A DNA stretch of 64,000 nucleotides from assembly GCF_044647545.1 (NCBI RefSeq), contig NZ_CP172818.1; one strand, written 5' to 3'. Shown one piece after another: positions 18,841-58,900 of this stretch; positions within the stretch are counted from its first letter, which is position 1; the number at the start of each line of letters is the position of its first letter. A program made the translations under genes and the position numbers. Source of the DNA: Escherichia coli. GTDB lineage: Bacteria > Pseudomonadota > Gammaproteobacteria > Enterobacterales > Enterobacteriaceae. The notes beneath the pieces were generated by a model. The model was not told the DNA's origin, did no database searches, and saw only the letters and a program-made list of their open reading frames with translations.

Positions 18841-18844
18841 TAAC

Positions 18845-22932: not shown

Positions 22933-22982
22933 TGTGATGAGAACTGGCGTTACCCTTGTGGATAACGCCAGTGATGTCTGAT

Positions 22983-24545: not shown

Positions 24546-24560
24546 GTTATTGAAGAGTCG

Positions 24561-25511: not shown

Positions 25512-25662
25512 ACAGGGTCTCCTTACAACAACTGTCAACGCAGTTTGTAATTAAAAGATTAACCCATATCTGGTGAATGAAACAGTGATGAACCTTCTGT
25601 CAGATCAATAAATCAGAAAAATTTAATGATATGACAGAAGGATAGTGAGTTATGCGGAAGAA

Positions 25663-26415
25663 TCAGGCAACGTTACGCGTGTGACCAGCAAGCTGGGCCA
25701 GCGCATCGTTATTTTCGATAGTGATGTATTTACCTTTGACTGCCAGCATACCGCTTTTCTGGAAGCGACCCAGCAGACGGCTGATGGTTTCAACTGTCAG
25801 GCCCAGATAGTTACCGATATCACCACGAGTCATCGTCAGGCGGAATTCACGAGGGGAGAAGCCGCGTTGGGCAAAACGACGGGACAGGTTGTAGATGAAT
25901 GCAGCCAGACGTTCCTCGGCATTTTTCTTCGACAACAGCAGGATCATGTCCTGATCGCCTTTGATTTCACCGCTCATCAGACGCATCATCTGCTGACGCA
26001 GATTCGGCATTTTACCGGACAAATCGTCCAGCGTTTCGAACGGGATTTCACATACCATCGAGGTTTCCAGCGCCTGAGCGAAGCTCGGGTGATGACCGCT
26101 GCCGATAGCGTCAAATCCCACCAGGTCGCCTGCTAAATGGAAACCAGTGATTTGCTCGTCGCCTTGCTCAGTGATGGTATAACTTTTAATCGTACCGGAG
26201 CGGATGGCATAAAGCGATTTAAGTTCATCACCAGCCTTAAACAGCGTCTGGCCTTTCTGAATAGGCTTCTTCCGCTCAATGATATTATCAAGCTGATCAA
26301 GCTCATGTTCGTTGAGTGTGAACGGGATGCAAAGCTGGCTGATGCTGCAATCCTGGCAATGGATAGCACAACCGCCAGACTGAATGCGCCGTATAATTCG
26401 CTTTTCCGGGATCAT
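25663..26415 (-). CDS. fnr: global anaerobic regulator FNR (CRP/FNR family)
   Basis: ORF 25663-26472; start [29 protein letters not shown] at 26415; N-terminal Cys cluster and C-terminal HTH. Confidence 0.9.
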
Positions 26416-26434
26416 AGGTCTGCTCAAGCCGTAA

Positions 26435-26448
26435 TTGATATTTGTCAA
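26435..26448. promoter_or_regulatory. FNR-box in fnr promoter region (candidate autoregulatory site)
   Basis: ttgat-attt-gtcaa fits TTGAT-N4-ATCAA, 20 bp upstream of the fnr start codon. Confidence 0.5.
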
Positions 26449-26609
26449 TTTTAACATCTTTTTAGGGAGCAAGTAAGTCTAAGCAAACCTTAACAGCAGA
26501 GAATTCCGATATTAGATGTAAATATATGTCTATCTATTTGAAAACCCTTAAGTTGTTAAGGGTAACTTTACATAAAAGTGTGAACAAGCTGGCACAAATT
26601 GTTTAATGT

Positions 26610-27125
26610 TTACAGCAAAAGATAACCTTCGTGGCGCAATAACCACTCTTTTCGCTGAACTCCGCCTGCATATCCGGTCATGGTACCGTTTCTGCCAATG
26701 ACCCGATGACAAGGCACAACAATGCTGATGGGATTCGATCCATTTGCCGCACCTACGGCACGCGCCGCACCGGGGCGGCCCAATTGTTCAGCCAGTTGGC
26801 CGTAATGCATTACCTGCCCGCAGGGGATTGTGCGTAATGTTTTCCAGACTTCGCGCTGAAATGGCGTCCCCCCCGTGGCAGTGGGAAGCGTATCAATAAT
26901 GCTAAGATTACCGGCAAAATATTCACGAAGCTTGTCGCTTAAACCACCTGGGTTGGTGGCAGAAATGCGCTCATAGCCTTCTTTGCGATAATGGATGTCC
27001 AGCAGCTGCACCATGCGTTCGCTGTACTCTTCCCATTCAACCGCCCGCAGGCGAAATTGCTCATCGCAAATCACCCACAGTGGACCCAGTGGCGTGACAA
27101 TTTTTTCTTCAAGTAATCTCAGCAT
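26610..27125 (-). CDS. ogt: O6-alkylguanine-DNA alkyltransferase
   Basis: 171 aa ORF with active-site PCHRV motif ([10 protein letters not shown]). Confidence 0.9.
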
Positions 27126-27135
27126 CCGTTCTCTC

Positions 27136-28668
27136 TTAAGACAAACGTGGGTAAATCCCCGGACCTATCGGCAGACCAACAAGATACCACGCCAGCAACA
27201 TCAGCAGCCATACCACCAAAAAGATAAGTGGATAGGGCAAAACTAACGAATAGTAAGTACCCAGTTTCGCGTCTGGTTTGTAACGTTGCAGGAATCCAAG
27301 AAACAGTGGAACAAAAGGAGATACCGGCGCTAAAGGCAATACGGATGAGTCGGCAATACGAAAGAGGATTTGCGCAAATGCCGGGTGAAAGCCAAGTAGC
27401 ATAAACATTGGTACGAAAATGGGGGCCAGAATCGACCAGATTGCGGAACCGCTGGCGATAAACATGCATAAGAAAGAGGAAAGCAACGCCAGACCGACAA
27501 ACGCCGGGATGCCGCTAAGCCCTGAACTTTCCAGTATATCGGTCAGCCCCACGGCGATGAATTTCCCCATGTTGCTCCAGTTAAACATGGCGACAAACTG
27601 GGCGAGGGGAAAAACCATCACGATAAATCCCGCCATCTCTTTCATCGGTTCAATCATTAAATGCGGTAAATCCGCCTGACGTCGAATTGTGCGGGTAGCG
27701 ATGCCATAAGCCAGCGAGACCACAAAGAAAAAAAGAATGATCAGTGGCACGATACCTTTAATAAAGGGTGATGGCATCACGGTGTGATTAATCGGATCGC
27801 GCAATATCCCGTTTTCCGGGATCACCATCAGCGCAATCGCAGCAATAAAAAGTAGCGATACGACACCTGCTATGTGTAAACCAAAACGCTGACTTTCGGT
27901 CAATGTCTGCAGTTTCTCATCGCTGTTTCCCTGCCATTGACCTAAACGTGGCTCAATGATTTTGTCGGTTATCAGGCCGCCAACAATCGTCAGTACGACT
28001 ACGGAGCTGGCCATAAAATACCAGTTATCAATTACACTGACGTGCATTTGCGGATTGAACGCAGCCGCAGCCTCCGTGCTGATCCCCGACAGCAACACGT
28101 CGGTTGTGACAATCAGTAAATTAGCCGTAAAGCCGCAACCTACGCCTGCAATGGCGGCAAGTAAACCTGCAACTGGATGCCTGCCCACCGCCAGAAAAAT
28201 TAGCGCACCCATCGGTGGCATGATCACTAACGCCGCATCGGAAGAAATGTGGCTGAAAAAAGCAATAAACAGCACCATATAACTGGCGTAGCGGGCATTC
28301 ACATGCGATGCCATTTTAACCATCAACGCTGGCAGTAAGCCGACGCGCTCCGCCAGACCGGCACCTAAAACCAGCGCCAGGATCGCGCCAAGTGGAGCAA
28401 AACCGCTAAAGTTTTTAATAACATTGGGTAAAAACCAGTGTAATCCTTCCACACTGAGCAGGTTTTTCACGACCACTGGCGTACCATCGGTCGGGTTTTT
28501 CGCACTGACGCCAAAGGCCGACAAAATTGCCGTCGTCACCATGAGTACGATAATCAAATAGATAAAGAGCAAAAAAGGATGGGGAACCTTGTTACCAATT
28601 CTTTCGACCCAGCCATAGAGCTTCCCGGATTGGGAGGACGACGGTATGGATGACATACTCATGGGCAT
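27136..28668 (-). CDS. abgT: p-aminobenzoyl-glutamate transporter (AbgT family)
   Basis: 510 aa polytopic membrane ORF; operon with abgA/abgB. Confidence 0.85.
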
Positions 28669-28698
28669 TCCTCGTTTGTTGTGTTTGCGTTGTTGTTG

Positions 28699-30144
28699 TT
28701 ATTTTAAAGGTGACGGTGTCACGTTTTTCGGGATAGGGCAGTGATACGGTTGCGTGTCCGTAACTTGCTGATGCTCTTGTTGGCATTCTTGCAATAGCCC
28801 TGAATCAATGAAGAGATTAAGTGTGGTTGCTGCCATAGTTTTCGCCGCCAGCAGCATTCCTTTATGAGCAATAGATGTTCGCCCCTGGCTAACCAGTTGC
28901 CACGTATGTAGCGGGGTACCGACGGCAAAGCAGGGGCTGAAACACTGGGCAACAGGCAGTTTCCAACTGACGTCGCCGACATCAGTCGATGCCGCAAGCA
29001 CGTTATCGGTGGCGGCATATGGAGCGACTTCATTCGCCAGTACCGTTTCACGATGACGTAGTGCAAAAGCCTTGCCGTTTTCGCCACCGGTTGCAGCGAT
29101 ATTGTTCAAACTGTTTTGCCGATCGTTGGGGGTGAGCGTAGCCTGAATTTGTTTCGCAAAAGCCAGTTCTTCGCAGTTCCATTCCGGGGTACCAAAATGG
29201 GATAGGGCTCGGTACATGGCATTTTCTAAGGTGCGATTCGGGAGATAACTGGAACAGGCTTTGTCGAAGCGGCATTCAACCGTGGTTTCGGTCATCAATG
29301 CCGCACCTTCGGCGATTTTGGCGACCCGATCATAAATATGCTGCACATCGGTCATTTCGGGGGCGCGGATAAGATAAAGCACTTCTGCCTGCGCCTGGAC
29401 CACGTTGGGCGAGATCCCGCCGCTATCTGTGATGGCATAGTGTACGCGCGCTTTTTCAATAATATGTTCGTTGAGGAAGTTGGTGCCAGTGGTCATCAAC
29501 GTTACGGCATCAAGGGCGCTGCGTCCCAAATGAGGGGAATTCGCGGCATGTGCTGCGATCCCTTTAAAGCGCCATGATGCCTGAATGTTTGCCAGCGTGC
29601 GGGTATTGAACATACCGGCAAAGGCTTCCGGGTGCCAGGTGAGTGCCGCATCCACATCATCAAATACCCCCTCGCGGACCATGAACGTTTTACCCGAGCC
29701 GCCTTCTTCGCCAGGACAACCATAAAAGCGCACCGTGCCGCCTTGCCCATATTGTTCCAGCCATTTCTTGACGGCTATTGCAGCGGCAAAGGCGGCGGTT
29801 CCCAGCAAATTGTGTCCGCAACCGTGACCATTTTCACCGGGCGTCGCGGATGTAGGTTGCGCGCAACTTGCTTGCTGACTTAAACCTGCCAGGGCGTCAT
29901 ATTCCCCCAGCAGGGCGATAACCGGTTTGCCTTGACCAAACGAAGCAATAAAGGCATTTGGGATATTGCCTACGTTGCGGGTAACGATGAAGCCTGAAGA
30001 TTCCAGCGCCGAAGCCAGATGCTCCGCTGACCAGAACTCTTCAAAACGTGTTTCTGGATGATCCCAGATTTGATCGGCAATATCGGTATAACGTTGGCGA
30101 TCGGCTTCAATCGCATCGTCGATAAAACGATAGATTTCCTGCAT
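28699..30144 (-). CDS. abgB: p-aminobenzoyl-glutamate hydrolase subunit B (M20 peptidase)
   Basis: 481 aa ORF, M20 metallopeptidase features. Confidence 0.85.
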   Translation of the reverse strand: MQEIYRFIDDAIEADRQRYTDIADQIWDHPETRFEEFWSAEHLASALESSGFIVTRNVGNIPNAFIASFGQGKPVIALLGEYDALAGLSQQASCAQPTSATPGENGHGCGHNLLGTAAFAAAIAVKKWLEQYGQGGTVRFYGCPGEEGGSGKTFMVREGVFDDVDAALTWHPEAFAGMFNTRTLANIQASWRFKGIAAHAANSPHLGRSALDAVTLMTTGTNFLNEHIIEKARVHYAITDSGGISPNVVQAQAEVLYLIRAPEMTDVQHIYDRVAKIAEGAALMTETTVECRFDKACSSYLPNRTLENAMYRALSHFGTPEWNCEELAFAKQIQATLTPNDRQNSLNNIAATGGENGKAFALRHRETVLANEVAPYAATDNVLAASTDVGDVSWKLPVAQCFSPCFAVGTPLHTWQLVSQGRTSIAHKGMLLAAKTMAATTLNLFIDSGLLQECQQEHQQVTDTQPYHCPIPKNVTPSPLK

Positions 30145-30158
30145 CAGATACCTCGCGT

Positions 30159-31469
30159 TCAGGGAAAATTGAGCGCGGTGCGCGCCAGCGTTTCGACGGC
30201 AATAGTGAGAACCTGCTCGTCAAAATCGAATTTTTCGTTGTGGTGACCTGCCGCCAGCTGTGTGCCAAACACCATATAGGAGGCTTGCCCTTGATGTTGC
30301 TGCACGCGGGCCATCATTAATGTGGCATCTTCGGAACCCGCAGGCGCTTCAACACGTTCAATTGCCTGATTGACCCCCGCGACCTGAGCTGCCTGACTTT
30401 GCAACCATGCGACCCATTGCGGCGAAGGAGAACTGGCGGTAGCTGCACCCATCAGACGAGTTTCAACGCCGACACCATACATGGTTGCTGCGCCCTGAAT
30501 CGCTTGTTGTGCACGGTCAAAAACATATTGATTAATGACGTCGCTGGCCCCGCGTGTTTCCACTTTCAGCAACGCTGAGGCGGGAACAACATTACGACCG
30601 CTTCCTGCCTGCATAACGCCCACGTTTACTCTGGAAGCGCCTTCGCTGTGCGGGGCGATTGCATGCAGTGCAAGAGTTGCTTGTGCTGCAGCCAACAAGG
30701 CATTGTGACCGTCTTCTGGTTTTGCGCCTGCGTGAGCGGCGGTCCCGGTGAAGTGCGCGTCAAATTTGGTGGTTGCCATAAAATTATCACTGCCGCACAC
30801 CACGGTGCCCGCAGGTACGCCAGTGCCAATGTGAACGGCAGTAAAATAATCAACATCATCCACTACTCCTGCATCGACCATCGCCCGCGCGCCACGCGTA
30901 CCTTCCTCTGCAGGTTGAAAAATCAGTTTGATGACGCCATGTAGTCCGGACTCGAACTGTTTAAGGGTATGCGCCAGCCCAAGCCCAATGGCGGTATGTC
31001 CATCATGACCACAGGCATGCATCATTCCGGCGTTACATGACGCAAAACCGTCGCGGTAGGGGCGATGGCTGACATCTTGCTCTTCACTGAGATCCAGCGC
31101 GTCCATATCGACACGGAAAGCCATCACCGGACCGGGGCGACCAGTATCCAGGGTAGCGACGATGCCAGTGAAACCGCCTTCAAAAGCCGCAATCCATTGT
31201 TCTAGCGCCCCCTGTTGACGAGCGCGCTCGAATTCGCGTTGTAGAGTGAATTCATCAGGTAATCCCATCCGGCTACTTTCATTAACGACTTCGCGGCCCA
31301 GCGCCAGTGAATAACCGAGCTGGTGCAATTCTTCCGCAACAACGGTGGCAGTGCGGAATTCCACCCAGCCAGACTCTGCATAGTGGTGAAAATCACGTCG
31401 CCAGTGCGATAATTTTGGGGCAAGCGAATTAATAAATTGATTCAAAGACTCCATAACCTTTCCCGTCAT
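30159..31469 (-). CDS. abgA: p-aminobenzoyl-glutamate hydrolase subunit A (M20 peptidase)
   Basis: 436 aa ORF, M20 family, adjacent to abgB. Confidence 0.85.
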   Translation of the reverse strand: MTGKVMESLNQFINSLAPKLSHWRRDFHHYAESGWVEFRTATVVAEELHQLGYSLALGREVVNESSRMGLPDEFTLQREFERARQQGALEQWIAAFEGGFTGIVATLDTGRPGPVMAFRVDMDALDLSEEQDVSHRPYRDGFASCNAGMMHACGHDGHTAIGLGLAHTLKQFESGLHGVIKLIFQPAEEGTRGARAMVDAGVVDDVDYFTAVHIGTGVPAGTVVCGSDNFMATTKFDAHFTGTAAHAGAKPEDGHNALLAAAQATLALHAIAPHSEGASRVNVGVMQAGSGRNVVPASALLKVETRGASDVINQYVFDRAQQAIQGAATMYGVGVETRLMGAATASSPSPQWVAWLQSQAAQVAGVNQAIERVEAPAGSEDATLMMARVQQHQGQASYMVFGTQLAAGHHNEKFDFDEQVLTIAVETLARTALNFP

Positions 31470-31629
31470 CAGTAAAAAGTGTGACCCGGTTCACGTAGCG
31501 ATAGTTTTTACTTATCACTAACTGATTTTTCACAGTTTTAACCGTTCATAAATTACCCTGACACAATCATCTGCATTAAAGTAGATGCCAGTTTCTTTGG
31601 TCTGATAAATAACGGTTATCGGTGGCGTC

Positions 31630-32538
31630 ATGGCTTTTCAGGTAAAAATTCATCAAATTCGGGCTTTTGTTGAAGTGGCTCGTCAGGGCAGCATTCGCGG
31701 AGCGAGCCGAATGTTGAATATGTCGCAACCGGCACTGAGTAAATCTATTCAGGAACTGGAAGAAGGGTTGGCGGCACAACTCTTTTTTCGCCGTAGTAAA
31801 GGCGTGACGTTAACTGATGCCGGTGAAAGTTTTTATCAGCACGCCAGTCTTATTCTTGAAGAGCTGCGCGCAGCGCAAGAGGATATTCGCCAACGACAAG
31901 GGCAACTGGCAGGGCAAATTAATATCGGCATGGGGGCCAGTATTTCCCGCAGTCTGATGCCAGCTGTCATATCTCGTTTTCATCAGCAGCATCCGCAGGT
32001 AAAAGTACGCATTATGGAAGGGCAACTGGTGTCGATGATTAATGAATTGCGCCAGGGAGAACTGGATTTCACCATCAATACCTATTATCAGGGACCCTAC
32101 GACCACGAATTTACTTTTGAGAAATTACTGGAAAAGCAATTCGCGATCTTTTGCCGCCCGGGACATCCCGCCATTGGTGCCCGTTCGATCAAACAGTTAC
32201 TGGACTACAGCTGGACAATGCCGACGCCACACGGCAGCTACTACAAACAGTTGAGTGAATTGCTTGACGATCAGGCGCAAACGCCACAGGTCGGCGTAGT
32301 CTGCGAGACGTTCTCAGCCTGTATCAGTCTGGTGGCAAAAAGCGATTTTCTCAGCATACTACCTGAAGAAATGGGCTGCGATCCCTTGCACGGACAGGGG
32401 CTGGTGATGTTGCCGGTTAGCGAAATTTTACCGAAAGCGGCCTATTATTTGATTCAGCGGCGTGATAGTCGCCAGACACCACTGACCGCGTCATTAATCA
32501 CGCAATTCCGGCGAGAATGCGGCTATCTGCAAAGTTAA
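31630..32538 (+). CDS. abgR: LysR-family transcriptional regulator
   Basis: 302 aa ORF with N-terminal HTH (SIRGASRMLNMSQPALSKSIQELE), divergent from abgABT. Confidence 0.85.
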   Translation: MAFQVKIHQIRAFVEVARQGSIRGASRMLNMSQPALSKSIQELEEGLAAQLFFRRSKGVTLTDAGESFYQHASLILEELRAAQEDIRQRQGQLAGQINIGMGASISRSLMPAVISRFHQQHPQVKVRIMEGQLVSMINELRQGELDFTINTYYQGPYDHEFTFEKLLEKQFAIFCRPGHPAIGARSIKQLLDYSWTMPTPHGSYYKQLSELLDDQAQTPQVGVVCETFSACISLVAKSDFLSILPEEMGCDPLHGQGLVMLPVSEILPKAAYYLIQRRDSRQTPLTASLITQFRRECGYLQS

Positions 32539-32544
32539 AACTGC

Positions 32545-32640
32545 ATAAAAAAATAGAGTCTGTCGACATCCGCCAGACTCTACAGTACACACAGCAGTGC
32601 ATCCGCGTCTTAAATCCGGCATGGTCTCCTCTGCGCCGGT
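32545..32640 (-). ncRNA. mcaS: small regulatory RNA McaS (IsrA)
   Basis: Reverse complement reads ACCGGCGCAGAGGAGAC...GAGTCTGGCGGATGTCGACAGACTCTATTTTTTTAT, matching the recalled McaS sequence including terminator hairpin and U-tail; abgR-smrA intergenic location. Confidence 0.8.
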
Positions 32641-32867
32641 GACTGTGTTATAACGGTTTTAACCTTTAGTTGCCAATTTTCTTCAGTGACAGATTTCACG
32701 AAAATATAAGTTACATTATTAATATCGTGAATGAATAATCATGCATAAGCATTTTGCTTAAAATATCGGCAACATTTGGAACTTATTACTGGAAATTTGG
32801 GTAATACGTTGTTGGACCAGCCCGGTCTGGTTATCATATCGCGCTCTTAATTGCGGGAGGATGTAAC

Positions 32868-33431
32868 ATGAACCTTGACGACAAATCGCTGTTTCTTGAC
32901 GCCATGGAAGATGTCCAGCCGCTGAAACGTGCTACAGATGTCCACTGGCATCCAACGCGTAACCAACGTGCGCCGCAGCGTATCGACACGCTGCAACTTG
33001 ATAATTTCCTCACCACTGGATTTCTCGACATCATCCCGCTAACTCAGCCGCTGGAGTTTCGGCGGGAAGGGTTGCAACATGGGGTGCTGGATAAGCTGCG
33101 CAGTGGTAAATACCCGCAACAGGCGAGCCTGAATCTTTTGCGCCAGCCGGTGGAAGAGTGCCGCAAAATGGTGTTCAGTTTCATTCAACAAGCCCTGGCG
33201 GATGGTTTGCGTAATGTGCTGATTATTCATGGTAAAGGGCGGGAAGATAAATCGCATGCCAATATTGTCCGCAGCTATGTGGCGCGCTGGTTGACCGAAT
33301 TTGATGATGTCCAGGCATATTGTACCGCGCTACCGCATCATGGCGGCAGCGGGGCGTGTTACGTCGCACTACGTAAAACGGCACAGGCAAAGCAAGAAAA
33401 CTGGGAGCGCCACGCTAAGCGCAGTCGTTGA
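32868..33431 (+). CDS. smrA: Smr-domain DNA endonuclease
   Basis: 187 aa ORF with C-terminal Smr domain (LIIHGKG...). Confidence 0.8.
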   Translation: MNLDDKSLFLDAMEDVQPLKRATDVHWHPTRNQRAPQRIDTLQLDNFLTTGFLDIIPLTQPLEFRREGLQHGVLDKLRSGKYPQQASLNLLRQPVEECRKMVFSFIQQALADGLRNVLIIHGKGREDKSHANIVRSYVARWLTEFDDVQAYCTALPHHGGSGACYVALRKTAQAKQENWERHAKRSR

Positions 33432-33451
33432 TCTCGAGACGCATCCGCGGC

Positions 33452-34684
33452 TTATGCCGCCAGCACGCGGTTGCGTCCATCATTTTTCGCCCGATACAAA
33501 GCATCATCAACGCGTTTAAACAGCTCATCGATGCTTTCATTTCCTTCGTGATGCGCCACACCAATGCTGACGGTAAAGCGTGGTAAGCCCGAAATACTCA
33601 CTTTTGCCACGCTTACGCGGATAGTTTCAGCCAGCGAAAGCGCGGTATCCAGTGGGGTTCTTGGTAGCAATAAGACAAACTCTTCGCCTCCCCAACGAAA
33701 CACCAAATCGCCTTTGCGAGCGCAACTTTCGAGGGTGCGGGCGAGGGCGCATAACACCTCATCACCTTTAGAATGCCCATAGAGATCGTTAATGTGTTTA
33801 AAACGATCGGTGTCGATGAGCAATAAGCTGTAATCCTGAGCGATGGCGAGGTGCTGCATTTGGCCAGGCTCGGTAATGTGATAAAACTGTCGCCGATTCA
33901 GTAATCCGGTCATCGCGTCATGGTGGGCAGCATGTTCCAGCTGCTCCTCCAGCCGTTTTTGCTCAGTAATATCATGCACAATACATAACATGAGCTTGTC
34001 GCCATAAATTTCAATCGGCCCAGCATAGGTCTGCACATGACGAGTCGAACCATCCGCCAATTTATGAACAAAATTCAAAGGCTTATGGCCACCGGGTAAA
34101 TGCGAAATTTCATGCATGATAGGCATGACGCGTCGCCCGAGCATATTTATTTCCCAGGTATGTTTCTGGCACATCGTTTCATGGTTATAACCATAGAAAT
34201 TGAGCGCGGCGAGGTTAGCATCAACGATTTGGCCATCTCGTGAGGGGTCAATCAACAACATTGGTGCAGAGTTAGTCAGAAAAAAGCGCGCATAAAAACC
34301 TTGTTTTTTGCGCTGATAATTTGCCGAGCGACTGGCTTTTAAACCCAGCGTTGCCGGCGCTTCGATACCTTCGAAAATAATCACCGGTTCTGTTTCTGTC
34401 AGCTCTCGCAAAACAAGCCGACAGCTTAATGCTGTTTCCTCTTCTTTACGTTGAACGGTGAGGATTTCGATAATATCGTGTTGGTTTTGCAGATCGGAGA
34501 GGTATTTCGGCAGTTCTTTTTGTGAGGAGACGGAATAGGGACCGGTTCGTAGCTGACTAAACGTGAGGTCTTGCATCAACAGTCGCGCCGCGCTGTTGGC
34601 ATAAATTAACTGTTCCTCAAAGGGCGAAACGATCCAGACAGGACTGGTGAGTAAGTCCAGGGTATTGAAGTTGTGCGTAATCAT
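33452..34684 (-). CDS. dgcM: diguanylate cyclase with PAS and GGDEF domains
   Basis: ORF 33452-34744; likely start MITHNFNTL at 34684; GGEEF motif (FRWGGEEFVLLLP). Confidence 0.8.
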   Translation of the reverse strand: MITHNFNTLDLLTSPVWIVSPFEEQLIYANSAARLLMQDLTFSQLRTGPYSVSSQKELPKYLSDLQNQHDIIEILTVQRKEEETALSCRLVLRELTETEPVIIFEGIEAPATLGLKASRSANYQRKKQGFYARFFLTNSAPMLLIDPSRDGQIVDANLAALNFYGYNHETMCQKHTWEINMLGRRVMPIMHEISHLPGGHKPLNFVHKLADGSTRHVQTYAGPIEIYGDKLMLCIVHDITEQKRLEEQLEHAAHHDAMTGLLNRRQFYHITEPGQMQHLAIAQDYSLLLIDTDRFKHINDLYGHSKGDEVLCALARTLESCARKGDLVFRWGGEEFVLLLPRTPLDTALSLAETIRVSVAKVSISGLPRFTVSIGVAHHEGNESIDELFKRVDDALYRAKNDGRNRVLAA

Positions 34685-38888: not shown

Positions 38889-40119
38889 CTACGATAACCG
38901 CGCATTCAACATGGCTATCTGTTCGTCGTTCATGTCATCAATCCACATACCGTAAATTTCATACACCATCTGCGCAGTTTCATGCCCCATTTGGCTGGCT
39001 ATAAATGCCGGGTTCGCTCCTGCCGTCAACAGCCAGCAGGCAAAAGTATGCCGCGTATGGTACGGATTACGGCGGCGAATACCAGCACGTTTTACTGCTG
39101 CATTCCACCTTGCCCCCAAACTGCTTACCGAGTAATAAGGTTTTTGTTTTCCGTTACACACCCTGGGCATGAAAACAAAATGCAGTTTTTGCTTTTCGGT
39201 TCTGCATACTGCCGATAATAAAAGGTGACGACTTTTGCGATGATGCCCGGTCAGTTTGTATTGCTCCTTCAGTGCTTCAAGAGCAGGCTGCAGTAGTGTT
39301 ACTGTTCGGATCCCGGCATTTGTTTTTGGGGGACCGAACATATCGAGCCCTCGTCAGGTTTCTTCTGACATTCACTATTCCCTTTTCGAGATCCACATCC
39401 TCCCACGCCAGAGCTGCCAGTTCCCCGTGACGAAGTCCTGAGTAAACGGCAAAGTTCCACAAGTTCTCGCTATCTCCTTTTTCACTTTCCATTAATGCAT
39501 TGAATTCTGTTTTAGATAACGGATCAGGCTTTATTCTGTTCGCTGTAATTTTTTTACTCCTTCAAATGGTTTGGTTGATATAAATCCGACTGATACGCAA
39601 AACGCAACAGCGAACAGAGCAAGGCAATATCGTATCAACTGTGCGCACGGTTCTTCCTTTTTTGTTGGATCTTGGATTATCCAGGTAAAGCGTTTCTCCA
39701 TGCAGCAGTTCATTCCGGTAGTTTAAGATATCGCTATAACGAATATGTGATATCGGGGTACTTTCACAAATTATTATTCTGAGTGTTTTTAATTGTGATT
39801 TCGTTTTCTTCATTGTGTTTGTTGTTAACTCTGTCTCTTTAATTTTTGTCCAGATATCACAAAGCTCTCCGAACGTTTTTATGACTCTCGTTGTCACCAT
39901 TTTTGCCCCAGTGCTGGACTGGGGAAAACGTCTTAAATACTCAAATTCACCGGAGTTTATTTCATGAACTATCAGCGCTCTTAAATTTCCGGCCTTTTTA
40001 ATATTACTGTTTGTAATCTCCCAGCCTTTTAATGTTTCCCGACATCGTTTTCCTCGAAACATGAACCAGATGCGAATGTATCTACCTCTAATCTCGACAC
40101 CTGTTGGTAATTTAGACAT
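38889..40119 (-). pseudogene. intR: prophage tyrosine integrase, reading frame broken by at least two frameshifts
   Basis: Three consecutive minus-strand ORF fragments (39562-40119, 39277-39492, 38889-39341) together resemble one tyrosine recombinase (MSKLPTGVEIRGRYIRIWF...; ...LRHGELAALAWEDVD...; ...RHTFACWLLTAGANPAFIASQMGH...EIYGMW). Confidence 0.75.
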
Positions 40120-40414: not shown

Positions 40415-40696
40415 TTAATTTGAATACAATGCAATTCTCGAGGACTGAAGTTTCTCGCAATTAAAATTTATCAGTTTTACTTTCTGCTCTCTGGAAACGC
40501 CTGCTTCTTTTTTACCTGAGAGCATTTTTTCGCATTCTGATTTCGTTAGTTTAGATTTTGAATATCTTGTCCAGTTAGTAGGAGTGCCACCTTCCTTTTC
40601 AATAGTGGCGGTAATTTTATACATGAACACCTCCATTATTATTTCCAGTGGTTCGTTTATTCCATCTTTCGAGTGCTTCTTTTTCACTTCCACCAT
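40415..40696 (-). CDS. ydaC: prophage protein of unknown function (alternative internal starts give a 69-73 aa product)
   Basis: 93 aa maximal ORF; internal Met candidates (MEVFMYKITATIEKEGG...); overlaps the 3' end of ralR. Confidence 0.6.
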   Translation of the reverse strand: MVEVKKKHSKDGINEPLEIIMEVFMYKITATIEKEGGTPTNWTRYSKSKLTKSECEKMLSGKKEAGVSREQKVKLINFNCEKLQSSRIALYSN

Positions 40697-48908: not shown

Positions 48909-49655
48909 ATGAAAAATATTGCGACAGGCGATGTTCTTGAACGTATCCGCAGACTGGCCCCGTCACATGTAACCGCGCCATTCAAGACGGTAGCGGAGTG
49001 GCGCGAGTGGCAACTTTCCGAAGGCCAGAAACGTTGTGAGGAGATCAACCGTCAGAATCGTCAGTTGCGGGTGGAAAAAATTCTGAATCGCTCTGGCATC
49101 CAGCCATTGCACCGCAAATGCTCGTTTTCGAATTACCAGGTGCAGAACGAAGGGCAGCGATACGCGTTGAGTCAGGCGAAATCCATCGCTGATGAACTGA
49201 TGACCGGGTGTACAAATTTTGCGTTCAGCGGAAAACCTGGTACCGGGAAGAACCACTTAGCGGCAGCTATCGGGAATCGCCTGCTGAAAGACGGTCAGAC
49301 AGTGATTGTGGTTACCGTGGCTGATGTTATGAGTGCCCTGCACGCCAGCTATGACGATGGGCAGTCAGGCGAAAAATTTTTGCGGGAACTGTGCGAAGTG
49401 GATCTGCTGGTTCTTGATGAAATTGGCATTCAGCGCGAGACGAAAAACGAGCAGGTGGTACTGCACCAGATTGTTGATCGCCGGACAGCGTCGATGCGCA
49501 GCGTGGGGATGCTGACAAACCTGAACTATGAGGCCATGAAAACATTGCTCGGCGAGCGGATTATGGATCGCATGACCATGAACGGCGGGCGATGGGTGAA
49601 TTTTAACTGGGAGAGCTGGCGTCCGAATGTCGTCCAGCCAGGAATTGCGAAGTAA
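48909..49655 (+). CDS. ydaV: DnaC/IstB-like AAA+ replication protein (helicase loader)
   Basis: 248 aa ORF with Walker A ([15 protein letters not shown]) and Walker B (LLVLDEIG). Confidence 0.8.
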
Positions 49656-50199
49656 TTTTTACCGGGAGAAAAATTTAATGGAGACTGTTTTTGACGCACT
49701 GAAAGCAATGGGAAAAGCCACATCCATAGAACTTGCTGCGCGACTTGATATCAGTCGTGAAGAAGTGCTGAACGAACTATGGGAACTGAAAAAGGCTGGT
49801 TTTGTTGATAAAAGCGCGTACACCTGGCGTGTGGCTGATAACAATGTTCAGCAGGAACAGCCAGCGCAGGCAGAACTGCCGGAAGAAATCACCACAGCAA
49901 CAGTAGCGAAAATCTCAGAGTGCGATTTAACCGCGACGATTGAACAACGAGGACCACAAACGGCTGATGAGCTGGCTACATTGTTTGGTACCACATCACG
50001 CAAAGTGGCTTCAACGCTGGCAATGGCAATCAGCAAAGGTCGTCTGATTCGCGTAAATCAGGGCGGTAAATTTCGTTACTGCATACCGGGCGATAATTTA
50101 CCAGCAGAGCCGAAAGCAGCATCGGTATCTCCGCTCTGGTTATCTGCATCATCGTCTGCCTGTCATGGGCTGTTAATCATTACCGTGATAACGCCATGA
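49627..50199 (+). CDS. ydaW: prophage protein YdaW, probably a remnant; 3' end runs out of frame over the Rz N-terminal coding region
   Basis: 190 aa ORF; N-terminal winged-helix-like region; its last ~33 codons overlap sequence that encodes an Rz transmembrane segment in another frame. Confidence 0.5.
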
Positions 50200-50570
50200 C
50201 CTACAAAGAGCAGCGCGATAAAAAAGTCAGTGAGCTGAAGCAGGCGACTGCCACCATTACTGACATGCAGCAGCGCCAGCGTACTGCTGATGCACTTGAT
50301 GCTAAATACACGAAGGAGTTAGCTGATGCGAAAGCTGAAAATGATGCTCTGCGTGATGATGTTGCCGCTGGTCGTCGTCGGTTGCACATCAAAGCAGTCT
50401 GTCAGTCAGTGCGTGAAGCCACCACCGCCTCCGGCGTGGATAATGCAGCCTCCCCCCGACTGGCAGACACCGCTGAACGGGATTATTTCACCCTCCGGGA
50501 ACGACTGGTAATGATGCAGGCCCAACTTGAAGGTGCTCAGCAATACATAACCGAGCAGTGTTTAAAGTAA
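50097..50570 (+). pseudogene. rzpR: Rz-like i-spanin lacking a start codon
   Basis: Frame open from 50097; encodes ...[34 protein letters not shown]... (Rz-like TM helix plus coiled-coil domain) but the first ATG (50196) lies after the TM segment. Confidence 0.65.
50326..50511 (+). CDS. rzoR: Rz1-like o-spanin lipoprotein embedded in the +1 frame of rzpR
   Basis: 61 aa ORF with lipobox ([11 protein letters not shown]) and proline-rich tail ([18 protein letters not shown]), fully nested in rzpR. Confidence 0.7.
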
Positions 50571-50707
50571 AATCTTAACTACAATATGATTCATTTTGAT
50601 GATTGTTTCATAAGGAACAGTGAAGTAAGATCTAAGAGGAGTTAAATTTTATACAGTATAATCATAATATTGCAGCAAGGTGGTTATAATTGAAAGAATA
50701 TTTAGAT

Positions 50708-52165
50708 ATGAATACATCTCATGTAAGAGTTGTTACTCATATGTGTGGGTTCCTGGTTTGGCTCTATAGTCTTTCAATGTTGCCACCAATGGTTGTAGCA
50801 TTGTTTTATAAAGAAAAAAGCCTGTTTGTTTTCTTTATAACTTTCGTTATATTTTTTTGCATTGGTGGCGGAGCGTGGTATACAACTAAGAAATCTGGCA
50901 TTCAATTACGTACCCGTGATGGGTTTATTATAATTGTAATGTTTTGGATTTTGTTTTCTGTTATTAGTGCATTCCCTTTATGGATTGACTCAGAACTTAA
51001 TTTAACGTTCATTGATGCTCTGTTTGAAGGGGTTTCTGGAATAACAACAACAGGAGCAACTGTAATTGATGATGTTAGTTCATTACCTCGGGCATATTTG
51101 TACTATCGGTCACAGTTAAATTTTATAGGTGGTTTAGGAGTTATTGTTCTGGCGGTTGCTGTATTGCCATTATTGGGTATTGGTGGTGCAAAGCTTTATC
51201 AGTCAGAAATGCCGGGGCCATTTAAGGATGACAAACTCACTCCCCGCCTGGCCGATACGTCACGGACACTGTGGATAACTTATTCTTTATTAGGTATTGC
51301 TTGTATTGTCTGTTATAGACTTGCAGGAATGCCTTTGTTTGATGCTATTTGTCACGGGATTTCCACAGTTTCGCTTGGTGGTTTCTCAACTCATAGCGAG
51401 AGTATCGGATATTTTAATAACTATTTGGTTGAGCTGGTGGCTGGTTCTTTTTCCCTGCTATCGGCTTTCAACTTCACTCTTTGGTATATTGTTATTAGCA
51501 GGAAAACGATAAAACCTTTAATCAGAGATATTGAACTTCGTTTCTTTCTGTTAATAGCCTTAGGGGTGATCATTGTTACCTCTTTCCAGGTCTGGCATAT
51601 AGGTATGTATGACTTGCATGGAAGTTTTATTCATTCGTTTTTTCTTGCCAGCTCCATGCTCACTGATAATGGTTTAGCTACGCAGGATTATGCAAGTTGG
51701 CCCACGCACACGATAGTGTTTTTGCTGTTGTCAAGTTTCTTTGGGGGATGTATAGGTTCAACTTGTGGTGGAATTAAGTCACTTCGATTTCTTATACTTT
51801 TCAAACAAAGCAAACACGAGATAAATCAGCTTTCTCATCCCAGAGCGTTGTTGAGTGTAAATGTAGGAGGGAAGATAGTTACAGATCGTGTAATGAGGTC
51901 TGTATGGAGTTTCTTTTTTCTTTATACTCTCTTCACGGTGTTTTTTATACTGGTGTTAAATGGTATGGGATATGATTTTCTTACATCATTTGCAACAGTG
52001 GCTGCATGTATTAATAATATGGGATTAGGTTTTGGGGCTACTGCATCGTCATTCGGAGTGCTTAATGACATTGCAAAATGCTTAATGTGCATAGCTATGA
52101 TTCTTGGTCGCCTTGAAATTTATCCTGTTATTATATTGTTTTCAGGTTTTTTTTGGCGCTCCTAA
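50708..52165 (+). CDS. trkG: Trk-family potassium uptake membrane protein
   Basis: ORF 50690-52165; likely ATG at 50708 (MNTSHVRVVTHMCGF...); polytopic; AT-rich relative to its flanks by eye. Confidence 0.85.
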   Translation: MNTSHVRVVTHMCGFLVWLYSLSMLPPMVVALFYKEKSLFVFFITFVIFFCIGGGAWYTTKKSGIQLRTRDGFIIIVMFWILFSVISAFPLWIDSELNLTFIDALFEGVSGITTTGATVIDDVSSLPRAYLYYRSQLNFIGGLGVIVLAVAVLPLLGIGGAKLYQSEMPGPFKDDKLTPRLADTSRTLWITYSLLGIACIVCYRLAGMPLFDAICHGISTVSLGGFSTHSESIGYFNNYLVELVAGSFSLLSAFNFTLWYIVISRKTIKPLIRDIELRFFLLIALGVIIVTSFQVWHIGMYDLHGSFIHSFFLASSMLTDNGLATQDYASWPTHTIVFLLLSSFFGGCIGSTCGGIKSLRFLILFKQSKHEINQLSHPRALLSVNVGGKIVTDRVMRSVWSFFFLYTLFTVFFILVLNGMGYDFLTSFATVAACINNMGLGFGATASSFGVLNDIAKCLMCIAMILGRLEIYPVIILFSGFFWRS

Positions 52166-52302
52166 TATATGGCTGATTTATAATTGTGAGTTTAATATTA
52201 TGTTGACTCACTCATTGATCCAATACCTAACTTTACCAGCAACACCTCCGTCCCCAGTAGCACTGGCTGCTGGGGTGCGTTTTATTCATAAAGCAAGGCT
52301 GT

Positions 52303-52566
52303 ATGAGCGAGAAATTAAAGATAGTCTATCGCCCATTACAAGAATTGTCACCGTATGCGCACAACGCCAGGACGCACAGTACTGAGCAGGTGGCACAACT
52401 GGTAGAAAGTATTAAGCAATTCGGCTGGACTAATCCGGTGCTGATTGACGAAAAGGGCGAAATTATTGCGGGTCACGGTCGTGTTATGGCGGCTGAAATG
52501 CTCAAAATGGATTCTGTTCCGGTCATTGTTCTGTCTGGCCTGACGGATGAGCAGAAGCAGCGATAA
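52303..52566 (+). CDS. ynaK: ParB-like nuclease-domain protein fragment
   Basis: 87 aa ORF (MSEKLKIVYRPLQELSPYAHNARTHSTEQV...IAGHGR) resembling the N-terminal ParB/Srx domain; overlaps ydaY by 20 nt in another frame. Confidence 0.65.
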   Translation: MSEKLKIVYRPLQELSPYAHNARTHSTEQVAQLVESIKQFGWTNPVLIDEKGEIIAGHGRVMAAEMLKMDSVPVIVLSGLTDEQKQR

Positions 52567-52906
52567 CGATCAGTATCGCTCCCGTAATGCATTAATCCGT
52601 CGCCACATTGAGAAAATGGATGCCAGTTTGCACGTCGGAACGAAGGAGTTTGATATTTCAAAGGTTTCCGAGGTGGATTCTGTTGATGATTTACTCATTG
52701 ATAATGCCGCTCGTTATCTGCTGAAAGACTGGAAAGGGGTTGGTGAACTGGTTAATGGTGTTGAGGTTGCACTGGAATATACGGCAGAACGAGGGATCGC
52801 GCTGCTTAAGCAGAATCCAGAGTTGTACTGGCAGATCCTTGCAGAAGCAGCCAGCATCGCCCAGGGTAAAGAGCAGCAGAAGCAGGATACGATAAAAAAG
52901 CCATAG
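52547..52906 (+). CDS. ydaY: prophage protein YdaY (probable remnant)
   Basis: 119 aa ORF overlapping the end of ynaK in a different frame, suggesting a split ancestral gene. Confidence 0.55.
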   Translation: MSRSSDNDQYRSRNALIRRHIEKMDASLHVGTKEFDISKVSEVDSVDDLLIDNAARYLLKDWKGVGELVNGVEVALEYTAERGIALLKQNPELYWQILAEAASIAQGKEQQKQDTIKKP

Positions 52907-52980
52907 CTGCCCAGCGGTGGTTATCGGAGTTCGGGGGAGAAAGGGGGGAAAAGGCAAGATGGAAGCGAGAAAAACTCAGG

Positions 52981-53214
52981 TTGCCACCGATACCGGAACC
53001 AGAAATAGACCCGGTGCTTAAGGAGTTGTTGTACGCCTATTCGGTAATATCCCGTGCCCGACGTTATGCTGGAATGGCTGGGGTGCCTTTGCCTTTATCT
53101 CTGACAGAGATAAATGAATATTTAGCCACTCATCCGGTATTGATTGAGCGCGATGAATTTGAAGCAGTGATCTTTGCACTGGATGACCAGTATTTTCAGG
53201 AGCAGTGTGTGTAG
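52981..53214 (+). CDS. hypothetical 77-aa ORF (TTG start), possible tail-assembly chaperone remnant
   Basis: ORF directly upstream of the tape-measure fragment, the position occupied by G/GT chaperones in lambdoid tail modules; weak start context. Confidence 0.3.
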   Translation: MPPIPEPEIDPVLKELLYAYSVISRARRYAGMAGVPLPLSLTEINEYLATHPVLIERDEFEAVIFALDDQYFQEQCV

Positions 53215-53332
53215 TTGTTAATTACGTACACTCTGTTACAGAGATGTGATGGTGTCTTTAATTAAATCGATGATGCTCCTGGAGAAAAGCATTGCGTGGC
53301 CTCGTAATCGCTATATCTACTATTATGTCGCC

Positions 53333-53362
53333 TGAAACCCACTTCGCGGTGGGTTTTTTGTT
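53333..53362 (+). terminator. intrinsic terminator-like hairpin upstream of tmpR
   Basis: gaaacccac-ttcgc-ggtgggttt followed by tttttgttg. Confidence 0.45.
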
Positions 53363-53379
53363 GTCAGGAGTTTTAATAA

Positions 53380-54408
53380 ATGGCAGAGCAAACCTCGCGT
53401 CTCGCAATAATTATTGATAGCACTGGAGCGAAAAATAATGCTGACAATCTGACCTCCTCATTAGTCAAAATGACGCAGGCTGGGGAAACTGCTGCAAATA
53501 GCGCAGGGAAAGTGACTAAGGCAACAGAAGATGAGAAGAACGCGCTCGCAAAATTAAAAGCAGCTATTGATCCAGTTGGTGCCGCAATTGATACTGTCGG
53601 TCGACGCTATTCTGAATTAAAGAAATTTTTCGATAAAGGGCTTATTGATAAAGAAGAATATGAATTTCTTGTCCGTAAACTTAATGAAACCACAGAGGAA
53701 TTGAGCGGGGTTGCGCAAGCGCAGAGAGAAGCCGAGAAGGCCGGAAAACTTGCTGCCGCTCAGCAGGAAGCGCAGGCTCAGGCCTTTCAAAGAATGCTGG
53801 ACAAGATCGACCCTCTGGCTGCGGCGCTAAGAAATCTTGAACAACAGCATGATGAACTTAATGCTGCGTTTGCATCCGGGAAAATAAATGGTTCTCAGTT
53901 TGAGAATTATAGCCGAAAAATACAGGAAACACGGCGAGAGCTTACCGGAGAGGCTCAGGCAGAGCGAGAAGCAGCAAAAGCGCATGATGAACAGGTTGTT
54001 GCTTTGCAACGTCTGATTGCTCAACTTGATCCTGTCGGAACTGCTTTTAATCGTCTGGTAGAACAACAGAAACAGCTCAATGAAGCAAAAGCTAAGGGGA
54101 TGCTTTCTCCTGAAATGTATGAGGAGCTTTCTGGAAAACTTCGTGCTATGCGGAGTGAGCTTGAGGTTACTCAATCACAATTAAGCAAAACCGGAATGTC
54201 GGCAAAACAAACGGCTTTTGCTATGCGCATGTTGCCTGCACAAATGACGGATATTGTTGTTGGGTTGTCCACTGGTCAGTCGCCATTTATGGTGTTAATG
54301 CAGCAGGGCGGCCATTCAGCTATGCAGGAGACAAGAATCGCCAGCTTACCCGTTACAGCGATACCCGCTGGCATGAAGATTCAGTGCGTAACCGCTGGTT
54401 CAGCATGA
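53380..54408 (+). CDS. tmpR: tail tape-measure protein fragment (N-terminal coiled-coil part)
   Basis: 342 aa ORF, highly alpha-helical A/E/K/Q-rich sequence; C-terminal ~35 codons overlap lom-frame sequence, indicating a deletion junction. Confidence 0.7.
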
Positions 54409-54524
54409 TGGCGGGGCCATCTGTACGCGTGAATGAATGGTTCAGTGCTTATGCGATGGCGGGTGTGGCTTACAGCCGTGTTTCGACGTTCTCCGGGGAT
54501 TATCTCCGCGTAACTGACAACAAG

Positions 54525-55720
<1,196 letters not shown>

Positions 55721-55935
55721 CAAGGGGAAAACGCACGATGTGCTGACCGGAAGTGATGACGATCGCCACAGCAACACGTCTCTGGCGTGGGGAGCTGGCG
55801 TGCAGTTTAACCCGACCGAATCCGTGGCCATTGACATTGCTTATGAAGGCTCCGGCAGTGGCGACTGGCGCACTGACGGTTTCATCGTGGGTGTCGGTTA
55901 TAAATTCTGATTAGCCAGGTAACACAGTGTTATGA

Positions 55936-55963
55936 CAGCCCGCCGGTTCAGGCGGGCTTTTTT
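55936..55963 (+). terminator. intrinsic terminator downstream of lomR
   Basis: agcccgcc-ggttca-ggcgggct followed by tttttt. Confidence 0.45.
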
Positions 55964-55968
55964 GTGGA

Positions 55969-58900
55969 GTGGATATGGCAGCAGTAAAAATCTCAGGTGT
56001 GCTGAAAGATGGTGCGGGAAAACCAATACAGAACTGCACTATTCAACTGAGGGCAAAGCGTAACAGCACCACGGTACTGGTGAACACGGTGGCCTCTGAA
56101 AATCCGGATGAAGCCGGGCGTTACAGCATGGATGTTGAGTATGGCCAGTACAGCGTCACCCTGCTGGTTGAAGGTTTTCCGCCTTCACATGCCGGAACCA
56201 TTACCGTCTATGAAGGTTCCAGACCAGGTACGCTGAATGATTTTCTCGGTGCCATGACGGAAGATGATGTCATGCCGGAGGCATTGCGTCGTTTTGAGGC
56301 AATGGTGGAAGAAGCGGCACGCAACGCGTCCGCGGTGGCACAGAACACGGCAGCCGCGAAGAAGTCAGCCAGTGATGCCAGCACATCAGCCCGTGAGGCG
56401 GCAACCCATGCGGCTGATGCTGCGGACTCAGCACGCGCAGCCAGCACGTCAGCCGGACAGGCCGCGTCGTCGGCTCAGTCAGCGTCTTCCAGCGCAGGAA
56501 CGGCATCAACAAAGGCCACTGAAGCATCAAAAAGTGCTGCCGCTGCAGAGTCCTCAAAAAGCGCGGCGGCCACCAGTGCCGGTGCGGCGAAAACGTCAGA
56601 AACGAATGCTTCAGCGTCACTACAATCAGCAGCCACATCTGCATCCACCGCGACCACGAAGGCATCAGAAGCTGCGACCTCGGCCCGGGATGCGGCGGCC
56701 TCAAAAGAAGCGGCAAAATCATCAGAAACGAACGCATCATCAAGCGCCAGTAGTGCAGCTTCCTCGGCAACGGCGGCAGGAAATTCCGCGAAGGCGGCAA
56801 AAACGTCCGAGACGAACGCCAGGTCTTCTGAAACGGCAGCGGGACAGAGCGCCTCGGCTGCGGCAGGCTCAAAAACAGCGGCTGCGTCGTCTGCCAGTGC
56901 AGCGTCAACAAGTGCCGGGCAGGCCTCAGCCAGTGCCACCGCCGCCGGAAAATCGGCAGAAAGCGCCGCATCGTCTGCTTCAACAGCCACAACGAAGGCT
57001 GGCGAAGCCACTGAACAGGCCAGCGCAGCAGCGAGGTCTGCTTCCGCAGCGAAGACATCCGAAACGAACGCGAAAGCGTCGGAAACAAGCGCAGAATCCT
57101 CAAAAACGGCTGCCGCATCGTCAGCCAGTTCGGCGGCGTCATCGGCATCATCGGCGTCTGCTTCAAAAGATGAGGCGACCAGACAAGCGTCAGCAGCGAA
57201 GAGCAGCGCCACGACGGCATCCACGAAGGCGACAGAGGCTGCTGGCAGTGCGACGGCGGCAGCTCAGAGCAAAAGTACGGCGGAATCCGCGGCAACGCGC
57301 GCCGAGACAGCAGCTAAACGGGCAGAGGATATTGCATCCGCCGTGGCGCTTGAGGATGCAAGTACGACGAAAAAGGGGATAGTACAGCTCAGCAGTGCGA
57401 CCAACAGTACGTCTGAAACGCTGGCGGCAACGCCAAAGGCAGTAAAATCAGCCTATGACAATGCAGAGAAACGTCTGCAGAAAGACCAGAACGGCGCTGA
57501 TATACCCGATAAGGGATGCTTCCTGAACAACATTAACGCGGTCAGTAAAACAGACTTTGCTGATAAGCGTGGTATGCGTTATGTGCGGGTTAACGCTCCT
57601 GCAGGTGCAACATCTGGAAAATATTACCCTGTTGTTGTTATGCGTTCTGCTGGCTCAGTAAGCGAACTGGCATCAAGAGTCATTATCACCACGGCAACGC
57701 GAACCGCAGGCGATCCGATGAATAACTGCGAGTTTAACGGATTTGTTATGCCTGGTGGCTGGACTGACAGGGGGCGTTATGCTTATGGCATGTTCTGGCA
57801 ATATCAAAACAATGAACGAGCCATTCACTCAATAATGATGAGTAATAAGGGCGATGATTTGCGCTCTGTGTTCTATGTTGATGGCGCTGCTTTCCCTGTT
57901 TTTGCGTTTATTGAAGATGGCCTGTCAATATCCGCACCTGGTGCTGATCTCGTTGTTAATGATACGACCTATAAGTTTGGGGCAACAAATCCGGCGACTG
58001 AATGTATCGCGGCGGACGTTATCCTTGATTTTAAGAGTGGGCGTGGTTTTTATGAGTCTCATTCGTTAATCGTTAACGATAACTTGTCGTGCAAAAAACT
58101 TTTTGCCACAGACGAAATTGTAGCGCGTGGTGGTAATCAGATTCGAATGATAGGTGGGGAGTATGGTGCATTATGGCGTAATGATGGCGCTAAAACTTAC
58201 CTGCTGCTTACCAATCAAGGTGATGTTTATGGTGGCTGGAATACATTAAGACCGTTTGCTATTGATAACGCAACCGGCGAACTGGTTATTGGAACCAAAC
58301 TGTCCGCAAGTCTGAACGGTAATGCATTAACAGCAACAAAGCTGCAAACGCCAAGACGGGTTTCTGGTGTTGAGTTTGATGGTTCCAAAGATATTACTTT
58401 AACCGCCGCGCATGTGGCTGCTTTTGCCAGAAGGGCAACGGATACATATGCCGATGCGGATGGTGGCGTTCCATGGAATGCCGAATCTGGCGCTTACAAT
58501 GTCACCCGCTCTGGCGACAGCTATATTCTGGTTAACTTCTATACCGGAGTCGGAAGTTGCCGGACCCTGCAGATGAAGGCGCATTACAGAAATGGTGGTC
58601 TGTTCTACCGTTCTTCAAGAGACGGTTATGGTTTTGAGGAAGACTGGGCAGAAGTTTATACCTCGAAAAATCTTCCACCAGAAAGCTACCCAGTCGGCGC
58701 ACCAATCCCGTGGCCATCAGATACGCCACCTGCAGGTTATGCAATCATGCAGGGGCAGACGTTTGATAAGGCAGCATATCCGAAACTGGCTATTGCCTAT
58801 CCTTCTGGTGTTATTCCAGATATGCGCGGCTGGACAATCAAGGGCAAACCCGCCAGTGGTCGGGCCGTATTGTCTCAGGAACAGGATGGCATTAAATCGC

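Follow-up and report, generated by a model that had tools for sequence, protein, structure and literature searches.

We report that trkG of the defective lambdoid prophage Rac, found in a 64,000-nucleotide stretch of Escherichia coli DNA (the window), is most likely a cargo insert of one gene and about 1.7 kb, which was acquired by Rac at the junction of its lysis and packaging genes from a TrkG lineage; we put the probability of this reading at about 0.92. The gene has two hallmarks of a moron, a slot that is filled differently in related prophages and a composition unlike that of the flanking phage genes. The separate acquisition and AT-richness of trkG have been known since 1991. Tanudjaja et al. 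2022 (PMC9898762) describe trkG, at 38% vs 53% GC, as a foreign gene in rac, and the low GC, the location in Rac and the foreign origin are there credited to Schlosser et al. 1991, as cited in that paper. With composition, location and foreign origin already published, our finding is a correct rediscovery.

Identity and layout of the locus

A single long open reading frame in the list of frames spans the AT-rich stretch at 50571-52302. It runs on the + strand from 50690 to 52165 and encodes the membrane subunit of a Trk K+ uptake system. The product is 491 aa long if translated from the TTG at 50690 and 485 aa long if translated from the annotated ATG at 50708. In a megablast search of 5,426 complete E. 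coli genomes the region is recognised as trkG of Rac. The gene is identical to the K-12-type trkG (b1363) at 1458 of 1458 nucleotides, and rzoR, ynaK and ydaY likewise show 100% DNA identity to the K-12-type genome. The gene order is that of K-12 throughout: ttcA, then intR, xisR, ralR, recT, recE, racC, kilR, sieB and racR, followed by ydaS, ydaT, ydaU, ydaV, ydaW', rzpR'/rzoR, trkG, ynaK and ydaY, and then by a tape-measure remnant, lomR::IS5, stfR, tfaR and pinR, with uspF and ompN beyond. The window also shares with K-12 the deletion joints on either side of trkG, the IS5 in lomR and the integration beside ttcA. By its sequence and its genomic context, both the neighbouring genes and the adjacency to ttcA, the stretch is the K-12-type Rac trkG.

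The preliminary description had placed trkG between a lysis remnant and the tail genes, and this is borne out: an Rz/Rz1 remnant lies 5' of it, and ynaK, ydaY, the tape-measure remnant and tail-fibre genes lie 3'. On the 5' side, ydaW' (49627-50126, + strand) is annotated as an incomplete DUF1627 gene and has a deletion joint at its 3' end. It abuts rzpR' (50127-50570, + strand), the Rz i-spanin gene without about its first 20 nt, which is 98.8% identical to the Rz gene of the phage records ON470595 and ON470614, starting at the 21st base of that frame, and 80-93% identical to the Rz genes of lambda and many other lambdoid phages. Embedded in it is the Rz1 o-spanin lipoprotein gene rzoR (50326-50511, + strand), an intact frame of 61 aa whose counterpart in the K-12-type genome is annotated as a prophage lysis lipoprotein. 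An AT-rich spacer (50571-50689) with a Shine-Dalgarno-like AAGGTGG at 50677-50683 then leads into trkG on the same strand. On the 3' side, a terminator-like hairpin (52252-52285, + strand), with a 10-bp stem of which 7 pairs are G-C followed by TGCGTTTTAT, marks the right edge of the AT-rich block. The next gene, ynaK (52303-52566, + strand), retains the N-terminal 87 of the 263 aa of a ParB/Srx-like gene and gives a weak match to the ParB N-terminal domain; its full-length counterpart stands 5' of the terminase genes in intact relatives. The remnant ydaY' (52547-52906, + strand) comes from a gene situated, in intact relatives, between the major-tail (BIG2-domain) and tape-measure genes. Homology to the intact phage stops at 54314, which is also the end of the tape-measure remnant, and the fragments of lomR in the region 54314-55969 are split by an IS5-family element (54672-55652, - strand), as in K-12.

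Unlike the prophage locus, the host chromosome is not that of K-12. In positions 1-38000 of the window, the ycj genes show 93-98% identity to those of K-12 and match ST648-type strains at 100%; the one ST648-type strain inspected (strain ST648) has an empty Rac site, with ttcA directly beside uspF. The Rac of the window (38800-62000) has K-12-type joints and several K-12-identical genes despite its non-K-12 host, and its identity to the K-12 copy is mosaic, from 89.8% (tfaR) to 100%. All 18 of the 18 differences from K-12-type Rac in 50100-52700 are substitutions packed into 185 bp (50118-50302) at the ydaW'/rzpR' junction, and no match better than 96.3% to 49600-50330 was found among complete E. 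coli genomes. This segment looks, by its sequence, like a short tract of recombination or gene conversion, perhaps with the Rz gene of another prophage as its source. Four frames mapped from the K-12 annotation are unclean, being off in length by 1-5 nt or carrying stop codons: ycjT (8486-10752), abgA (30144-31454), the Rac integrase gene intR (38889-40119) and 40436-40624. They may be frameshifted pseudogenes or allelic indels. Relative to K-12, the window also lacks ycjY and pgrR between mpaA and mppA (21138-21319) and the IS5 copy between ynaI and ynaJ (24014-24254).

Position in intact phages and deletion joints

Ten records of a phage collection carry trkG, with 99.6-100% protein identity. 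The gene order was inspected in two of them, ON470595 (which includes ttcA) and ON470614. Both read Q, holin, endolysin, Rz, trkG and the ParB-like gene (263 aa), followed by two small genes, terS, terL, portal, coat and tail genes, YdaY and tape measure. Lying between Rz and the ParB-like gene, trkG is therefore at the lysis/packaging junction and on the strand of the late genes. The earlier suggestion that trkG occupies the place of the head genes in a lambdoid map must be given up, as these fuller Rac-like phages carry it upstream of the terminase; the head genes are missing through a separate deletion of 11.6 kb downstream of trkG.

Two joints account for the present layout. At the left joint (50126/50127) the alignment to a fuller Rac-like phage (L003) skips from 11802 to 20001, so that 8.2 kb are gone, comprising the C-terminus of ydaW, Q, two tRNAs, the holin and lysozyme genes and the first 20 nt of Rz. 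At the right joint (52555/52556) it skips from 22431 to 33992, a loss of 11.6 kb that extends from about codon 85 of the ParB-like gene through the terminase, portal, coat and tail-tube genes and into ydaY. Between the two joints trkG stands intact on a remnant of 2,431 bp. About 1,510-1,617 of the 5,426 complete E. coli genomes have trkG; at least seven distinct downstream truncation end-points occur among E. coli genomes, all of which spare the gene, and one loss of trkG, mediated by IS1, was seen. A tRNA-Thr/tRNA-Gly pair lies between Q and the lysis genes in intact Rac-like and related prophages (L003 18344-18494, L016 1997-2150 and L017 2367-2517) and belongs to the stretch deleted from the window.

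The late-gene strand and the position between Rz and the ParB-like/terminase genes, together with 100% identity of the TrkG protein across nine deposited phage records from E. coli isolates, could point to a gene that serves the phage itself, besides or instead of lysogenic conversion, and that could restore K+ uptake late in infection. Against this stand the promoter of its own from which trkG is expressed in a prophage without Q and the late promoter (PMC5811629; PMC9898762), and its persistence in many decayed prophages, where it is useless to a phage. We regard a role in the phage life cycle as unlikely.

Protein family, translation start and expression

The TrkG sequence scores 415.4 bits against the TrkH family model TIGR00933 (cut-off 331.15), and the cluster representative P0001, a protein with 100% identity, is recorded as containing PF02386. 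Its score against the TrkH equivalog model NF008020, 449.7 bits, is below the cut-off of 866. Judged by these models, the product is a TrkG paralogue of the TrkH/TrkG family and not a TrkH orthologue. The solved TrkH structures, 3pjz and 4j9u, match TrkG at E = 1.2e-120 over residues 7-485 vs 4-485. Both the TrkG and the TrkH sequence show what we take to be the four glycine motifs of the pore loops and the GGCxGSTxGGxK loop. TrkG thus resembles the TrkH proteins of E. coli and Vibrio parahaemolyticus (PDB 3pjz, 4j9u) in its PF02386/TIGR00933 assignment, its equal length and its full-length match, and differs from TrkH in sequence, with 41% identity, and in the composition of its gene, with 38% GC against 53%. 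Na+ dependence and H-NS control have been reported for TrkG only, and not for TrkH (PMC9898762).

The annotated start of trkG is probably mis-assigned. A TTG or GTG codon 18 nt 5' of the annotated ATG is conserved in Rac, E. fergusonii, Citrobacter, Pectobacterium and E. cloacae, and in the same five genera it is preceded by a Shine-Dalgarno-like GGAG/GGTGG motif. At the position of the K-12 ATG, Citrobacter has CTG, Pectobacterium ATT and E. cloacae TTA, none of which is a standard start (ATG, GTG or TTG). Many TrkG homologues are 491 aa long, and translation from the TTG at 50690 would give the same length.

Published work on the identical K-12 gene shows that TrkG together with TrkA forms a functional Na+-dependent K+ uptake system, and that its transcript level is similar to that of trkH and is partially repressed by H-NS/StpA (PMC9898762). 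A constitutive sigma-70 (RpoD) promoter was found at trkG by genomic SELEX, and the gene has been described as inserted along with its own promoter (PMC5811629). It also belongs to the H-NS regulon, and its transcript rises 3.8-fold on over-expression of SlyA (PMC5797941). In the window, a scan around trkG for consensus promoters and for terminators gave sites in numbers no higher than shuffled sequence does, the promoter candidates (e.g. 50561-50590) being weak, and a search around the gene for the high-affinity H-NS motif with up to two mismatches found none. The upstream spacer is presumed to hold both the promoter of trkG and an H-NS binding site.

Limits of the insert

A three-segment maximum-likelihood split of 49000-54000 places change points in GC content at 50560 and 52235, with values of 0.513, 0.365 and 0.470 for the successive segments. 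Homology to other Rz genes stops between 50495 and 50548, depending on the relative, or 75 to 22 bp short of the Rz stop codon, and homology to relatives that lack trkG restarts 23-42 bp 5' of the ynaK start. The upstream spacer has homology neither to phages without trkG nor to the flanks of TrkG homologues. The coincidence of the homology limits with the composition change points indicates an insert of about 1.7 kb with one gene, bounded roughly by 50550/50570 and 52235/52260.

Three prophages, STEC276, ETEC L7_E1373 and PapRG-04-4, have the ParB-like-terS-terL module without trkG. Their slot, which lies between different lysis genes and the ParB-like gene, holds other small ORFs; in one it is a KTSC-domain gene on the opposite strand. 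In the STEC276 relative, genes for a scabin-related ADP-ribosyltransferase and a subtilase-family AB5 toxin B-subunit (L002 5901-7119) lie just 5' of the lysis genes of that prophage. A clean empty site was sought with an artificial query that joins the 3' end of Rz to the 5' end of ynaK, counting places that cover at least 80% of the junction, and 0 adjacent occurrences were found in complete E. coli genomes. In the phage collection no packaging module without trkG was found, as 10 of the 10 records with the module also have the gene. A search for an insertion scar, in the form of direct or inverted repeats flanking trkG, returned nothing beyond the 9-bp TTATAATTG at 50684 and 52178, a repeat that is reached by chance in about 10% of shuffles. 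A hairpin and T-run comparable to that at 52252-52285 stand 5' of the ParB-like gene in relatives without trkG; the hairpin is thus probably part of the phage backbone rather than of the insert, which may have no terminator of its own.

The capture of trkG by imprecise excision of a prophage beside a chromosomal trkG, in the manner of specialised transduction, would dispense with an insertion into the phage. 'Bacteriophage transduction' is mentioned in PMC9898762, and TrkG-clade genes are chromosomal in other genera. Captures of this kind end beside the attachment site, whereas trkG lies mid-prophage, flanked by Rz and the packaging genes and about 11.8 kb from the int end in the decayed copy, or about 19.5 kb in a fuller relative; furthermore, what the homologues share with the Rac copy is the ORF alone, plus about 25 bp on its upstream and 4 bp on its downstream side. 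With no relative seen that carries trkG at a prophage end, we reject this route as very unlikely.

A separate paralogue clade as the probable source of trkG

TrkG is 41% identical to E. coli TrkH. A homologue search that covered 5.8 billion proteins recovered a clade of TrkG proteins that are 61-84% identical among themselves and about 40% identical to TrkH. Identity to Rac TrkG declines from E. fergusonii (79%) through Citrobacter (77%), Pectobacterium (75%), Pantoea (73%), Enterobacter (70%), Buttiauxella (68%) and Serratia (66%) to Xenorhabdus (61%). No full-length protein outside the E. coli cluster that might mark a donor closer than the 79% of E. fergusonii was found in this search; a partial protein of E. 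albertii is 88% identical. In each of the five genera examined the TrkG-clade gene has a distinct locus, usually lower in GC than its surroundings. The E. fergusonii homologue lies between porin genes and an hchA-like (DJ-1/PfpI-family) gene, that of Pectobacterium 3' of pth and ychF, and that of E. cloacae between ygiQ and ftsP, while those of Serratia and Citrobacter lie in islands with AlpA/primase or dynamin/RHS genes. The DNA similarity of the homologues to the Rac copy is limited to the ORF (50685-52169).

These comparisons uphold the earlier proposal that trkG is separately acquired cargo. The composition breaks sharply at the limits of homology, related prophages lack the gene and have its slot filled otherwise, TrkG-clade genes at unrelated loci elsewhere share the ORF only, and TrkG is just 41% identical to TrkH. 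They point to the TrkG paralogue lineage of the Enterobacterales, and not to E. coli trkH, as its source. A duplicate of the host trkH, taken up by the prophage and later drifted towards AT, might be suspected from the interchangeability of TrkG and TrkH, both of which use TrkA (PMC9898762), and from the likening of trkG to the argF/argI duplication (PMC5811629). The identity matrix contradicts such an origin, since a separate 61-84% clade exists elsewhere in the Enterobacterales with each member at about 40% to TrkH, and the TrkH equivalog score of 450 bits against a cut-off of 866 speaks against it also. We reject it as having hardly any likelihood.

Base composition and codon usage

The window as a whole has a GC content of 0.489. 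For 50571-52302 the value is 0.373, which is nearly the lowest for any segment of its 1732-bp length: the minimum (0.3695) starts at 50501, and 0.24% of such segments are equal or lower. The flanks of the gene differ, with a GC of 0.256 upstream (50571-50707) and 0.409 downstream (52166-52302). The gene itself has a GC of 0.381 and a GC3 of 0.324, with A or T as the last base of 68% of its codons. With the window's own 31 chromosomal genes as the reference set, the codon adaptation index of trkG is 0.534; both this index and GC3 are the lowest among genes of at least 100 codons. The classical rare codons of E. coli account for 9.1% of the codons in trkG, whereas the chromosomal genes average 3.7%. 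Relative to the 31 chromosomal genes, trkG has z-scores of -4.3 for GC, -3.6 for GC3 and -3.8 for the codon adaptation index.

The impression, first gained by eye, that trkG and its flanks are markedly richer in AT than the rest of the window, with codons ending mostly in A or T, is thus given numbers. Equality with the neighbouring prophage genes, the observation that the preliminary description had set against its own reading, does not hold, because the immediate neighbours are 9-15 GC points above trkG (ydaV 0.527, rzpR' 0.525, ynaK 0.481 and ydaY 0.472), with a GC3 of 0.50-0.61 against 0.324. When the other Rac genes are taken as the reference group, trkG has z-scores of only -1.4 to -2.0, which places it at the low end of their range and not as a lone outlier; sieB, racR, pinR and ynaE of Rac are likewise AT-rich.

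The homologues span a GC3 from 0.43 to 0.72, and the Rac copy is the most AT-rich of them; even the nearest full-length relative outside E. coli (79% identical) has a GC3 of 0.43, above that of Rac trkG. The E. cloacae homologue, with 70% protein identity, reaches 0.72, so that the low GC is not imposed by the protein sequence. E. coli trkH has a GC of 0.529 and a GC3 of 0.621. Low GC as a mere outcome of the amino-acid content of a highly hydrophobic membrane protein, uninformative on origin, would fit a TrkG composition in which F, Y, M, I, N and K amount to 30.9% and the low GC1 (0.42) and GC2 (0.40) of trkG, but it is contradicted by an AT bias that is strongest at synonymous third positions, by a non-coding upstream spacer that is AT-richer still and by the GC3 values of the E. 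cloacae homologue and E. coli trkH, and we reject it as exceedingly improbable.

Comparison with known cargo genes

The moron concept for lambdoid phages is reportedly that of Juhala and Hendrix, with bor and lom of lambda as examples. Like these, trkG is one extra gene of deviant composition between conserved modules, near the lysis genes and expressed from the prophage. It differs from bor and lom in encoding a housekeeping-type ion transporter and not a surface or virulence protein, in lying on the strand of the late operon, and in that a terminator of its own could not be demonstrated. A second parallel is argF in the cryptic prophage CP4-6 of K-12: like trkG, it is the paralogue of a core gene, has a metabolic or transport function and brings a constitutive promoter of its own (PMC5811629). 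While argF is regarded as derived from argI by duplication or transposition (PMC5811629), trkG is a distant paralogue of trkH, at 41% identity.

Model for the acquisition and retention of trkG

Our comparisons, coupled with the published expression and transport data, suggest a model in which an ancestor of the Rac-like phages gained trkG after Rz/Rz1 and before the ParB-like and terminase genes, at a slot that holds different small genes in related phages. The intact TrkG would pair with host TrkA, giving the lysogen a second, Na+-dependent Trk system, as the activity reported for the K-12 gene suggests. The AT-rich upstream spacer would provide the promoter known from the literature, and trkG would therefore be expressed from a repressed, even decayed prophage; its low GC would make it a target of the partial silencing by H-NS/StpA described in published work. 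In the window, two later deletions stripped the phage genes from either side and left trkG intact on the 2.4-kb remnant. We infer that trkG has been kept by selection, and infer likewise the direction of transfer.

In intact Rac-like phages trkG is collinear with the Q-dependent late operon and might sustain K+ uptake late in infection, and the TrkG clade may itself be a cassette of one gene that roams among the Enterobacterales. These readings, in which trkG would be a phage auxiliary gene in addition to its role in the lysogen and the Rac copy would have a low-GC, unsampled donor, seem to us rather unlikely.

The value of these results as a discovery is small. They make minor additions in the exact lysis/packaging slot and the two deletion joints that isolate trkG, in the description of TrkG as a separate paralogue clade dispersed across loci of the Enterobacterales, and in the probable mis-annotation of the start codon. 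Rac trkG is a textbook example of how a host adopts a foreign gene from a prophage, here one that is rich in AT and targeted by H-NS.
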